From Escherichia coli (GTDB lineage: Bacteria; Pseudomonadota; Gammaproteobacteria; Enterobacterales; Enterobacteriaceae): DNA of 28,749 nucleotides. The notes beneath the pieces are model-generated. The model made no database searches. It was not told where the DNA came from and worked only from the letters and a program-made list of their open reading frames with translations. Below are positions 9,042 through 13,878 of the stretch, piece after piece. Both the position numbers and the translations under genes were made by a program. Every line of letters begins with the position of its first letter. The first letter of the stretch is position 1. Location: NCBI RefSeq assembly GCF_003334355.1, contig NZ_QOWP01000041.1. One strand, given 5' to 3'.

Positions 9042-11858
9042 ATGAGTGACTATAAATCAACCCTGAATTTGCCGGAAACAGGGTTCCCGATGCGTGGCGA
9101 TCTCGCCAAGCGCGAACCGGGAATGCTGGCGCGTTGGACTGATGATGATCTGTACGGCATCATCCGTGCGGCTAAAAAAGGCAAAAAAACCTTCATTCTG
9201 CATGATGGCCCTCCTTATGCGAATGGCAGCATTCATATTGGTCACTCGGTTAACAAGATTCTGAAAGACATTATCGTGAAGTCCAAAGGGCTTTCCGGTT
9301 ATGACTCGCCGTATGTGCCTGGCTGGGACTGCCACGGTCTGCCGATCGAGCTGAAAGTAGAGCAAGAATACGGTAAGCCGGGTGAGAAATTCACCGCCGC
9401 CGAGTTCCGCGCCAAGTGCCGCGAATACGCGGCGACCCAGGTTGACGGTCAACGCAAAGACTTTATCCGTCTGGGCGTGCTGGGCGACTGGTCGCACCCG
9501 TACCTGACCATGGACTTCAAAACTGAAGCCAACATCATCCGCGCGCTGGGCAAAATCATCGGCAACGGTCACCTGCACAAAGGCGCGAAGCCGGTACACT
9601 GGTGCGTTGACTGCCGTTCTGCGCTGGCGGAAGCGGAAGTTGAGTATTACGACAAAACTTCTCCGTCCATCGACGTTGCTTTTCAGGCGGTCGATCAGGA
9701 TGCACTGAAAGCAAAATTTGCCGTAAGCAACGTTAACGGCCCAATCTCGCTGGTGATCTGGACCACTACGCCGTGGACTCTGCCTGCGAACCGCGCAATC
9801 TCTATTGCACCTGATTTCGACTATGCGCTGGTGCAGATCGACGGTCAGGCCGTGATTCTGGCGAAAGATCTGGTTGAAAGCGTAATGCAGCGTATCGGCG
9901 TGACCGATTACACCATTCTCGGCACGGTAAAAGGTGCGGAGCTTGAGTTGCTGCGCTTTACCCATCCGTTTATGGGCTTCGACGTTCCGGCAATCCTCGG
10001 CGATCACGTTACCCTGGATGCCGGTACCGGTGCCGTTCACACCGCGCCTGGCCACGGCCCGGACGACTATGTGATCGGTCAGAAATACGGCCTGGAAACC
10101 GCTAACCCGGTTGGCCCGGACGGCACTTATCTGCCGGGCACTTATCCGACGCTGGATGGCGTGAACGTCTTCAAAGCGAACGACATCGTCGTTGCGCTGC
10201 TGCAGGAAAAAGGCGCGCTGCTGCACGTTGAGAAAATGCAGCACAGCTATCCGTGCTGCTGGCGTCACAAAACGCCGATCATCTTCCGCGCGACGCCGCA
10301 GTGGTTCGTCAGCATGGATCAGAAAGGTCTGCGTGCGCAGTCACTGAAAGAGATCAAAGGCGTGCAGTGGATCCCGGACTGGGGCCAGGCGCGTATCGAG
10401 TCGATGGTTGCTAACCGTCCTGACTGGTGTATCTCCCGTCAGCGCACCTGGGGTGTACCGATGTCACTGTTCGTGCACAAAGACACGGAAGAGCTGCATC
10501 CGCGTACCCTTGAACTGATGGAAGAAGTGGCAAAACGCGTTGAAGTCGATGGCATCCAGGCGTGGTGGGATCTCGATGCGAAAGAGATCCTCGGCGACGA
10601 AGCTGATCAGTACGTGAAAGTGCCGGACACATTGGATGTATGGTTTGACTCCGGATCTACCCACTCTTCTGTTGTTGACGTGCGTCCGGAATTTGCCGGT
10701 CACGCAGCGGACATGTATCTGGAAGGTTCTGACCAACACCGCGGCTGGTTCATGTCTTCCCTAATGATCTCCACCGCGATGAAGGGTAAAGCGCCGTATC
10801 GTCAGGTACTGACCCACGGCTTTACCGTGGATGGTCAGGGCCGCAAGATGTCTAAATCCATCGGCAATACCGTTTCGCCGCAGGATGTGATGAACAAACT
10901 GGGCGCGGATATTCTGCGTCTGTGGGTGGCATCAACCGACTACACCGGTGAAATGGCCGTTTCTGACGAGATCCTGAAACGTGCTGCCGATAGCTATCGT
11001 CGTATCCGTAACACCGCGCGCTTCCTGCTGGCAAACCTGAACGGTTTTGATCCAGCAAAAGATATGGTGAAACCGGAAGAGATGGTGGTACTGGATCGCT
11101 GGGCCGTAGGTTGTGCGAAAGCGGCACAGGAAGACATCCTCAAGGCGTACGAAGCATACGATTTCCACGAAGTGGTACAGCGTCTGATGCGCTTCTGCTC
11201 CGTTGAGATGGGTTCCTTCTACCTCGACATCATCAAAGACCGTCAGTACACCGCCAAAGCGGACAGTGTGGCGCGTCGTAGCTGCCAGACTGCGCTATAT
11301 CACATCGCAGAAGCGCTGGTGCGCTGGATGGCACCAATCCTCTCCTTCACCGCTGATGAAGTGTGGGGCTACCTGCCGGGCGAACGTGAAAAATACGTCT
11401 TCACCGGTGAGTGGTACGAAGGCCTGTTTGGCCTGGCAGACAGTGAAGCGATGAACGATGCGTTCTGGGACGAGCTGTTGAAAGTGCGTGGCGAAGTGAA
11501 CAAAGTCATTGAGCAAGCGCGTGCCGACAAGAAAGTGGGTGGCTCGCTGGAAGCGGCAGTAACCTTGTATGCAGAACCGGAACTGTCGGCGAAACTGACC
11601 GCGCTGGGCGATGAATTACGATTTGTCCTGTTGACCTCCGGCGCTACCGTTGCAGACTATAACGACGCACCTGCTGATGCTCAGCAGAGCGAAGTACTCA
11701 AAGGGCTGAAAGTCGCGTTGAGTAAAGCCGAAGGTGAGAAGTGCCCACGCTGCTGGCACTACACCCAGGATGTCGGCAAGGTGGCGGAACACGCAGAAAT
11801 CTGCGGCCGCTGTGTCAGCAACGTCGCCGGTGACGGTGAAAAACGTAAGTTTGCCTGA
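9042..11858 (+). CDS. ileS: Isoleucyl-tRNA synthetase
   Basis: 938 aa; class I HIGH motif ([11 protein letters not shown]), KMSKS motif, and a C-terminal zinc-binding CPRCWHY...CGRC. Confidence 0.97.
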
Positions 11859-12352
11859 TGAGTCAATCGATCTGTTCAACAGGGCTACGCTGGCTGTGGC
11901 TGGTGGTAGTCGTGCTGATTATCGATCTGGGCAGCAAATACCTGATCCTCCAGAACTTTGCTCTGGGGGATACGGTCCCGCTGTTCCCGTCGCTTAATCT
12001 GCATTATGCGCGTAACTATGGCGCGGCGTTTAGTTTCCTTGCCGATAGCGGCGGCTGGCAGCGTTGGTTCTTTGCCGGTATTGCGATTGGTATTAGCGTG
12101 ATCCTGGCAGTGATGATGTATCGCTCGAAGGCCACGCAGAAGCTAAACAATATCGCTTACGCGCTGATTATTGGCGGCGCGCTGGGCAACCTGTTCGACC
12201 GCCTGTGGCACGGCTTCGTTGTCGATATGATCGACTTCTACGTCGGCGACTGGCACTTCGCCACCTTCAACCTTGCCGATACTGCCATCTGTGTCGGTGC
12301 GGCACTGATTGTGCTGGAAGGTTTTTTGCCTTCTAGAGCGAAAAAACAATAA
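11858..12352 (+). CDS. lspA: Lipoprotein signal peptidase (signal peptidase II)
   Basis: 164-aa membrane protein [30 protein letters not shown]...; its start overlaps the ileS stop (ATGA). Confidence 0.95.
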
Positions 12353-12360
12353 TAAACCCT

Positions 12361-12446
12361 GCCGGATGCGATGCTGACGCATCTTATCCGGCCTACAGAT
12401 TGCTGCGAAATCGTAGGCCGGATAAGGCGTTTACGCCGCATCCGGC
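12361..12446. repeat. REP pair (BIME) in the lspA–fkpB intergenic region
   Basis: gccggatgcgatgctgacgcatcttatccggcctac and its inverted partner gtaggccggataaggcgtttacgccgcatccggc are typical REP palindromic units. Confidence 0.8.
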
Positions 12447-12476
12447 AAAAATCCTTAAATATAAGAGCAAACCTGC

Positions 12477-12926
12477 ATGTCTGAATCTGTACAGAGCAAT
12501 AGCGCCGTCCTGGTGCACTTCACGCTAAAACTCGACGATGGCACCACCGCCGAGTCTACCCGCAACAACGGTAAACCGGCGCTGTTCCGCCTGGGTGATG
12601 CTTCTCTTTCTGAAGGGCTGGAGCAACACCTGTTGGGGCTGAAAGTGGGCGATAAAACCACCTTCTCGTTGGAGCCAGATGCGGCGTTTGGCGTGCCGTC
12701 ACCGGACCTGATTCAGTACTTCTCCCGCCGTGAATTTATGGATGCAGGCGAGCCAGAAATTGGCGCAATCATGCTTTTTACCGCAATGGATGGCAGTGAG
12801 ATGCCTGGCGTGATCCGCGAAATTAACGGCGACTCCATTACCGTTGATTTCAACCATCCGCTGGCCGGGCAGACCGTTCATTTTGATATTGAAGTGCTGG
12901 AAATCGATCCGGCACTGGAGGCGTAA
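12477..12926 (+). CDS. fkpB: FKBP-type peptidyl-prolyl cis-trans isomerase FkpB (SlpA)
   Basis: 149 aa, [44 protein letters not shown]..., an FKBP fold signature. Confidence 0.92.
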
Positions 12927-12927
12927 C

Positions 12928-13878
12928 ATGCAGATCCTGTTGGCCAACCCGCGTGGTTTTTGTGCCGGGGTAGACCGCGCTATCAGCATTGTTGAAAACG
13001 CGCTGGCCATTTACGGCGCACCGATATATGTCCGTCACGAAGTGGTACATAACCGCTATGTGGTCGATAGCTTGCGTGAGCGTGGGGCTATCTTTATTGA
13101 GCAGATTAGCGAAGTACCGGACGGCGCGATCCTGATTTTCTCCGCACACGGTGTTTCTCAGGCGGTACGTAACGAAGCAAAAAGTCGCGATTTGACGGTG
13201 TTTGATGCCACCTGTCCGCTGGTGACCAAAGTGCATATGGAAGTCGCCCGCGCCAGTCGCCGTGGCGAAGAATCTATTCTCATCGGTCACGCCGGGCACC
13301 CGGAAGTGGAAGGGACAATGGGCCAGTACAGTAACCCGGAAGGGGGAATGTATCTGGTCGAATCGCCGGACGATGTGTGGAAACTGACGGTCAAAAACGA
13401 AGAGAAGCTCTCCTTTATGACCCAGACCACGCTGTCGGTGGATGACACGTCTGATGTGATCGACGCGCTGCGTAAACGCTTCCCGAAAATTGTCGGTCCG
13501 CGCAAAGATGACATCTGCTACGCCACGACTAACCGTCAGGAAGCGGTACGCACCCTGGCAGAACAGGCGGAAGTTGTGTTGGTGGTCGGTTCGAAAAACT
13601 CCTCCAACTCCAACCGTCTGGCGGAGCTGGCCCAGCGTATGGGCAAACGCGCGTTTTTGATTGACGATGCGAAAGACATCCAGGAAGAGTGGGTGAAAGA
13701 GGTTAAATGCGTCGGCGTGACTGCGGGCGCATCGGCTCCGGATATTCTGGTGCAGAATGTGGTGGCACGTTTGCAGCAGCTGGGCGGTGGTGAAGCCATT
13801 CCGCTGGAAGGCCGTGAAGAAAACATTGTTTTCGAAGTGCCGAAAGAGCTGCGTGTCGATATTCGTGAAGTCGATTAA
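12928..13878 (+). CDS. ispH: 4-hydroxy-3-methylbut-2-enyl diphosphate reductase (IspH/LytB)
   Basis: [42 protein letters not shown]...; ATG at 12928, 2 nt after the fkpB stop. The track's longer ORF from 12844 overlaps fkpB and is rejected. Confidence 0.95.

Follow-up and report, generated by a model that had tools for sequence, protein, structure and literature searches.

How closely is the translation of each gene tied to that of its neighbor in the operon ribF-ileS-lspA-fkpB-ispH of Escherichia coli, and what does the pair of repetitive extragenic palindromic (REP) units between lspA and fkpB contribute? The question arises from a 28,749-nucleotide (nt) stretch of E. coli chromosomal DNA (contig NZ_QOWP01000041.1, hereafter the window), where ileS runs into lspA, fkpB almost touches ispH, and the REP pair stands between the two couples. 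A first-pass annotation proposed tight translational coupling within a co-transcribed essential-gene operon, with the REP pair as an internal punctuation or stability element. The explanation favored here, which as a whole we regard as quite probable, consists of four parts: reinitiation from ileS onto lspA, a dual mode of start for ispH, a REP hairpin acting as translational separator and RNA barrier, and a possible effect of this hairpin on the termination of lspA.

At the ileS/lspA junction, the TGA stop of ileS and the ATG of lspA share one base, giving a spacing of -1. An overlap had been annotated at this position as ATGA; the overlap stands, while its 4-nt form is excluded, the bases being TGATG. 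The Shine-Dalgarno sequence of each gene was assessed as the best pairing of the 16S ribosomal RNA 3' end within the 22 nt upstream of the start, compared with random positions. The duplex for lspA reaches -0.9 kcal/mol, weaker than the random-position median of -2.6, so that lspA has no Shine-Dalgarno sequence. The two genes are adjacent, co-directional and carried on one documented transcript. A gene without a Shine-Dalgarno sequence whose AUG overlaps the preceding stop represents the classical termination-reinitiation arrangement, and this fits coupling of lspA to ileS. Termination-reinitiation coupling is a property of trpE-trpD and trpB-trpA, at UGAUG/AUGA overlaps. A ribosome ending ileS at UGA would sit right on the overlapping AUG of lspA (UGAUG). 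Because lspA lacks a Shine-Dalgarno sequence, most LspA synthesis probably proceeds by termination-reinitiation, and the amount of LspA would follow the translation of ileS at a reduced ratio. The overlap and the missing Shine-Dalgarno sequence, together with their conservation, are direct observations from which we infer the coupling itself.

A species survey with LspA as query, keeping one genome per species, yields 80 loci ranging from Escherichia to Vibrio, Shewanella and Marinobacter, and the order ribF-ileS-lspA-fkpB-ispH is kept in nearly all of them. Among the 62 Enterobacterales species, T[GA]ATG occupies the ileS/lspA junction in 57 (49 TGATG, 8 TAATG), and the anti-Shine-Dalgarno duplex of lspA has a median of -0.9 kcal/mol and is never stronger than -3.3 kcal/mol. 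The ribF/ileS spacing at the same 62 loci extends from -8 to 158 nt, mostly 24-62 nt; since this spacer drifts while the -1 overlap is kept, the overlap is conserved, not accidental. Outside the Enterobacterales, the ileS/lspA junction varies from -23 to +267 nt. The last eight codons of ileS show a third-position entropy of 0.51 bits, the lowest of 136 windows taken over the last 160 codons (median 1.00), and this low synonymous variation fits an extra constraint acting just before the lspA start.

Close spacing of this type is widespread, with 707 of 2,987 co-directional E. coli gene pairs (24%) at -8 to +6 nt and 4- or 1-nt overlaps the commonest (PMC10666635). Four of five tested E. coli pairs with -1/-4 overlaps are coupled, and coupling is lost beyond ~20 nt (PMC6728339, PMC10666635). 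The ileS/lspA pair resembles the coupled-overlap class formed by hyfHI, astDB, menDH and ydbH/ynbE (Huber et al. 2019) in being co-directional, overlapping by 1 nt and having little or no Shine-Dalgarno sequence. IleS and LspA are not parts of one complex, so stoichiometric co-assembly provides no obvious reason for their coupling.

At the fkpB/ispH junction, the TAA of fkpB is followed by a single C and then by the ATG of ispH. The annotated taacATG is thus correct, and the start described as lying 2 nt after the stop is located two positions past the last stop base, across a spacer of 1 nt. This +1 spacing falls within the few nucleotides typical of coupled pairs. The last codons of fkpB contain a GGAGG whose anti-Shine-Dalgarno duplex of -9.3 kcal/mol lies beyond the 1st percentile of random positions; it is strong in all 62 Enterobacterales, with a median of -9.3 kcal/mol, and the corresponding duplex of fkpB is -2.1 kcal/mol. 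The stop-1 nt-ATG form is present in 16 of the 62 species, and in 42 of them the end of fkpB overlaps ispH by 20 nt (ATGcagatcctgttggcTAA). Only point changes (gcgTTGaATG versus gcgTAAcATG) distinguish these forms, from which it follows that the E. coli group gained an earlier stop, the TAA that turned a 20-nt overlap into a 1-nt spacer. Stop positions at the fkpB 3' end differ between lineages. Initiation of ispH could occur in two modes, from ribosomes that terminate fkpB 1 nt before its AUG and from fresh ribosomes recruited by the strong GGAGG. Coupling thus appears better supported at ileS/lspA than at fkpB/ispH: the annotated tight coupling gains indirect support at the former from the missing Shine-Dalgarno sequence, the conserved overlap and the conserved synonymous sites, and is less certain at the latter, where ispH carries a strong GGAGG of its own. 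As a separate observation, a 303-nt insertion containing two copies of a ~90-nt repeat (tatatacccaacgtcattca...) splits fkpB from ispH in Morganella psychrotolerans, the sole such case among the 80 loci.

Between these two junctions, the REP pair is present as annotated, in the form of two inverted units within the 124-nt lspA-fkpB spacer (12353-12476). The pattern GCCGGAT-N8-22-ATCCGGC occurs five times in the window against an expectation of 0. An alignment of both units with three further REPs from the window has a mean column identity of 86%. The units match the GCCGGATG...ATCCGGCCTAC consensus of an imperfect palindrome of ~35-40 nt, and are extragenic, lying between the lspA stop and the fkpB start. 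Each E. coli genome has a median of 27-30 matches to queries that include them. The inverted arms and their 16-nt linker have the architecture of a bacterial interspersed mosaic element (BIME), which we take to be of a Z2/Y-like subtype. Folding of the spacer RNA gives a single long hairpin at -60 to -61 kcal/mol, with a z-score of about -8 to -9. Rfam at its gathering threshold gives no match in the range of these junctions, and relaxed thresholds give only sub-threshold matches to naRNA4 (REP325-derived), including one at REP unit 1, as expected for any REP. The MG1655 RefSeq records list no feature between lspA and fkpB, and the literature searched holds no mention of lspA together with REP. 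Elsewhere in the window, naRNA4 is matched at the Rfam gathering score at 21378-21500, inside a REP325-like REP cluster that includes units nearly identical to REP unit 1.

Table 1. Genes, junctions and signals of the operon, in window positions.
Feature	Positions	Strand	Basis and details
ribF, first gene of the operon	8058-8999	+	Open reading frame and MG1655 annotation; 42 nt upstream of ileS
ileS, isoleucyl-tRNA synthetase	9042-11858	+	Open reading frame and MG1655 annotation; TGA stop 11856-11858
TGATG stop/start overlap of ileS and lspA, 1 shared base	11856-11860	+	Direct reading; no upstream Shine-Dalgarno sequence
lspA, signal peptidase II	11858-12352	+	ATG 11858-11860; TAA stop 12350-12352; second in-frame TAA 12353-12355
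REP unit 1	12360-12396	+	Pattern match and alignment with the other REPs of the window; 7 nt after the lspA stop
Linker of 16 nt, loop of the inter-REP hairpin	12397-12412	+	Fold
REP unit 2, inverted relative to unit 1	12413-12447	-	Pattern match, fold and alignment
Published RNA 3' end (Term-seq, K-12 25802)	12453	+	6 nt past the base of the REP hairpin
fkpB, FKBP-type prolyl isomerase	12477-12926	+	TAA stop 12924-12926; weak Shine-Dalgarno sequence AAGAG
GGAGG, Shine-Dalgarno sequence of ispH	12917-12921	+	Within the last fkpB codons
fkpB TAA, C at 12927, ispH ATG; 1-nt spacer	12924-12930	+	Direct reading
ispH, 4-hydroxy-3-methylbut-2-enyl diphosphate (HMBPP) reductase	12928-13878	+	Open reading frame and MG1655 annotation; ATG 12928-12930
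Terminator-like hairpin gccggt/accggc with a run of six T	13908-13932	+	Read from sequence; between ispH and rihC

The distribution of the REP pair differs from that of the overlap. In 32 of the 62 Enterobacterales, lspA and fkpB are spaced by only -4 to +11 nt, so the older state in this order is likely a fully close-packed operon, and the long spacer an insertion. In Escherichia, Citrobacter, Pluralibacter, Kluyvera, Pseudocitrobacter and some Enterobacter, the spacer is occupied by REP-type pairs or single REPs; Proteus, Providencia, Morganella, Xenorhabdus and vibrios have unrelated hairpins with T-runs at this junction. Three alleles are present within E. coli. The 124-nt allele with two intact REPs is carried by 1,745 of 5,426 genomes (~32%); a 107-nt allele has an 18-nt deletion inside REP 2, and in an 87-nt allele both REPs have lost internal sequence. 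At least 3,060 genomes carry one or other of these deleted forms. The pair is intact in E. albertii, which indicates that the E. coli deletions are derived. In all three alleles, 7 nt separate the lspA stop from the hairpin and 29-30 nt separate the hairpin from the fkpB ATG, with energies of about -60, -41 and -32 to -35 kcal/mol for the 124-, 107- and 87-nt forms, respectively. These comparisons, and a share of intact copies of just about one third among E. coli genomes, mark the REP pair as recently inserted and polymorphic, and not as part of a conserved operon design.

Published RNA ends bear on what the hairpin does. Term-seq of MG1655 places a 3' end at 25802 on the plus strand (Adams et al. 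2021; PMC7815308 supplementary file 1), converted here with an offset of 13349 between K-12 and the window (lspA at 25207 and 11858, respectively). A REP barrier or stabilizer would leave its RNA end a few nucleotides beyond the hairpin, as is the case here; next to a stable hairpin that lacks a U-tract, such an end fits an exonuclease barrier or weak attenuation. The roles of REPs, as summarized in PMC12306157, include mRNA stabilization, attenuation and, at no more than 15 nt from a stop codon, control of translation; REPs at that distance reportedly stall ribosomes and lower upstream translation (Liang et al. 2015, as summarized in PMC12306157), a mode of action marked by stalling ahead of the stop, cleavage of the mRNA, tmRNA tagging and reduced protein output. 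With 7 nt between the lspA TAA and the hairpin in every allele, the present pair lies inside this limit. The lspA-fkpB copy resembles the REP/BIME stabilizers, attenuators and brakes in being an inverted consensus pair within an operon, close behind a stop codon and with an RNA 3' end just beyond; it differs from the studied systems in being polymorphic within the species, and its role here is assigned by analogy. Among those systems, REP/BIME elements reportedly act as mRNA 3' stabilizers and attenuators (malE-malF, Newbury 1987; Espeli 2001).

By analogy with known REP biology, the inserted hairpin would separate the two halves of the operon translationally; fkpB, 29 nt downstream, would then have to initiate on its own. 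The hairpin would also act as a barrier to 3'-5' exonucleases, as a partial attenuator, or as both, giving rise to transcripts that end just past it and protecting the ribF-ileS-lspA segment. Since it begins only 7 nt after the lspA stop, it may in addition make lspA translation terminate more slowly, an effect reported for REPs that lie within 15 nt of a stop. The proposed punctuation or stability role is consistent with the Term-seq end. As an intrinsic terminator the REP pair was rejected: it is followed by AAAAATCC, with no U-tract, and the terminator scan does not list the hairpin. In this respect it is unlike the hairpins with T-runs found at the junction in Proteus, Providencia, Morganella and Vibrio.

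Several points weigh against the reading of reinitiation at lspA, dual initiation at ispH and a functional REP hairpin. The reduced synonymous variation at the 3' end of ileS could have causes besides reinitiation; no direct coupling experiment was found in the literature for ileS/lspA or fkpB/ispH, and bioBF, a tested E. coli overlap pair, is uncoupled despite a weak Shine-Dalgarno sequence (PMC6728339, PMC10666635). Given its strong Shine-Dalgarno sequence, ispH need not depend on fkpB for translation. The 3' end at 25802 is modest, with ~1,000 reads compared with ~300,000 at the rpsT terminator, and it appears in one of three growth conditions only, apparently LB at an optical density (OD) of 0.4 (PMC7815308). 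The missing U-tract means that the hairpin is not a classical terminator. Finally, most Enterobacterales lack the REP pair, and roughly two thirds of E. coli genomes have it with internal deletions, a pattern that argues against a strongly selected role.

This last pattern leads to a reading of the REP pair as a selfish or neutral insertion, decaying in a tolerated spot and without any role in expression, the 3' end being incidental to a stable hairpin. We consider this possible, though on balance doubtful. Its lineage-specific occurrence beside the close-packed spacing of most Enterobacterales, the three E. coli alleles with the intact form in the minority, and the small, single-condition Term-seq peak speak for it. 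Against it stand the stable hairpin (-32 to -60 kcal/mol) that every allele keeps at one fixed distance past the lspA stop, the unrelated structured elements found at this junction in Morganellaceae and Vibrionaceae, and the documented REP effects on mRNA decay and translation.

A boundary between two transcription units, with an internal promoter at the end of lspA driving a fkpB-ispH transcript, is compatible with read-through from upstream and would give the REP region another meaning; we hold this to be unlikely. Internal promoters are presumably present within the operon, and the end of lspA (12294-12353), which combines a hairpin with T-run, promoter-like hexamers and a sigma-factor binding peak, may be a candidate for one that serves fkpB-ispH. 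The hexamers, TTGCCT-16-AATAAT at 12326-12353, are sigma-70-like but match weakly (9/12), in a scan that found 7 where 4.3 are expected in shuffled sequence. The peak was obtained with sigma-28 holoenzyme by systematic evolution of ligands by exponential enrichment (SELEX) at K-12 25672, window 12323 (PMC5493296), although SELEX reports in vitro binding. The title of Miller 1987, as cited in PMC2896540, speaks of 'multiple polycistronic mRNAs', in line with more than one unit. The terminator-like hairpin and its T-run at 12294-12317, followed by GGTTTTTT, lie inside the lspA coding sequence.

A further reading joins selection and insertion, and we give it a distinctly low probability: the lspA/fkpB junction would be a selected break-point, at which a hairpin, rather than the REP sequence as such, is kept, throttling LspA termination and setting fkpB-ispH RNA below ribF-ileS-lspA. 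It is motivated by the independent acquisition of unrelated elements at this junction: the Escherichia/Citrobacter/Enterobacter group has REP pairs there, and Morganellaceae and Vibrionaceae have terminator-like hairpins. The maintenance of a hairpin in particular is suggested by the successive E. coli deletions in both REP arms, which still leave a stable hairpin exactly 7 nt past the lspA stop.

Genome compaction alone, with lspA and ispH initiating independently and overlaps devoid of regulatory meaning, is very unlikely in our judgment: such spacings are indeed widespread (24% of co-directional pairs), a strong Shine-Dalgarno sequence precedes ispH and bioBF overlaps without coupling, but lspA has no Shine-Dalgarno sequence in 62 of 62 Enterobacterales, its AUG overlaps the stop in 57, the synonymous sites just upstream of its start are unusually conserved, and most tested overlapping pairs are coupled.

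The preferred reading, reinitiation at lspA combined with a REP hairpin as separator and barrier, involves known kinds of element throughout (operon, overlap type, REP roles) at a known locus, and nothing in it is new in kind. With the details of the junctions corrected, the first-pass annotation stands as an observation, and its interpretation is right in broad outline. Overlap coupling and REP hairpins are textbook principles, and beyond good annotation the importance of the case is small. The comparative data nevertheless make it a tidy example of a REP insertion splitting an otherwise fully close-packed operon. The operon also encodes antibiotic targets, IleS (mupirocin), LspA (globomycin) and IspH, which makes the tie of LspA to ileS and the effect of the REP pair on fkpB-ispH relevant to knock-down and resistance studies.

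The operon is not strictly one of essential genes, as had been annotated, because fkpB is not known to be essential; the co-transcription claimed alongside is borne out by the literature. This operon of ribF-ileS-lspA-fkpB-ispH was reported in Kamio 1985 and Miller 1987, as cited in PMC2896540, and is used as a model polycistron in PMC10783499; CRISPR interference (CRISPRi) against ileS is polar on lspA (PMC8510551). Neither the ileS/lspA nor the fkpB/ispH junction has a curated 3' end in the Term-seq lists (PMC7815308). Apart from 25802, the sole curated end in the operon is at K-12 25325, corresponding to window 11976, 118 nt inside lspA; it is seen in two growth conditions and is scored as not Rho-dependent (PMC7815308). 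No obvious hairpin or U-tract is present at this position. The hairpin and T-run downstream of ispH is likely the end of the operon; the consensus terminator scan does not pick it up, and no dominant Term-seq 3' end is located there.

The locus itself is firmly placed. Between positions 11700 and 13100 the sequence shows 100% identity to K-12 MG1655, and every one of the 5,426 complete E. coli genomes searched contains this stretch. The MG1655 RefSeq gene order is rpsT, yaaY, ribF, ileS, lspA, fkpB, ispH, rihC and dapB, and the open reading frames of the window agree with it. The published K-12 ileS-lspA-fkpB-ispH operon corresponds to the same locus, with the same five genes in the same order and no difference within the range considered here; the upstream nhaR-rpsT region differs. 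There, espX1 and fimbrial usher and subunit genes lie between nhaR and rpsT (window 2900-7500), in the place of the IS1A of K-12, so the strain of the window is not K-12 even though its operon region is K-12-identical. This nhaR-rpsT arrangement is common to ~3,600 of the 5,426 genomes. Two further Rfam matches at the gathering score lie in the window, the sokC antitoxin RNA at 247-399 and the ES003 small RNA upstream of carA at 16202-16254.

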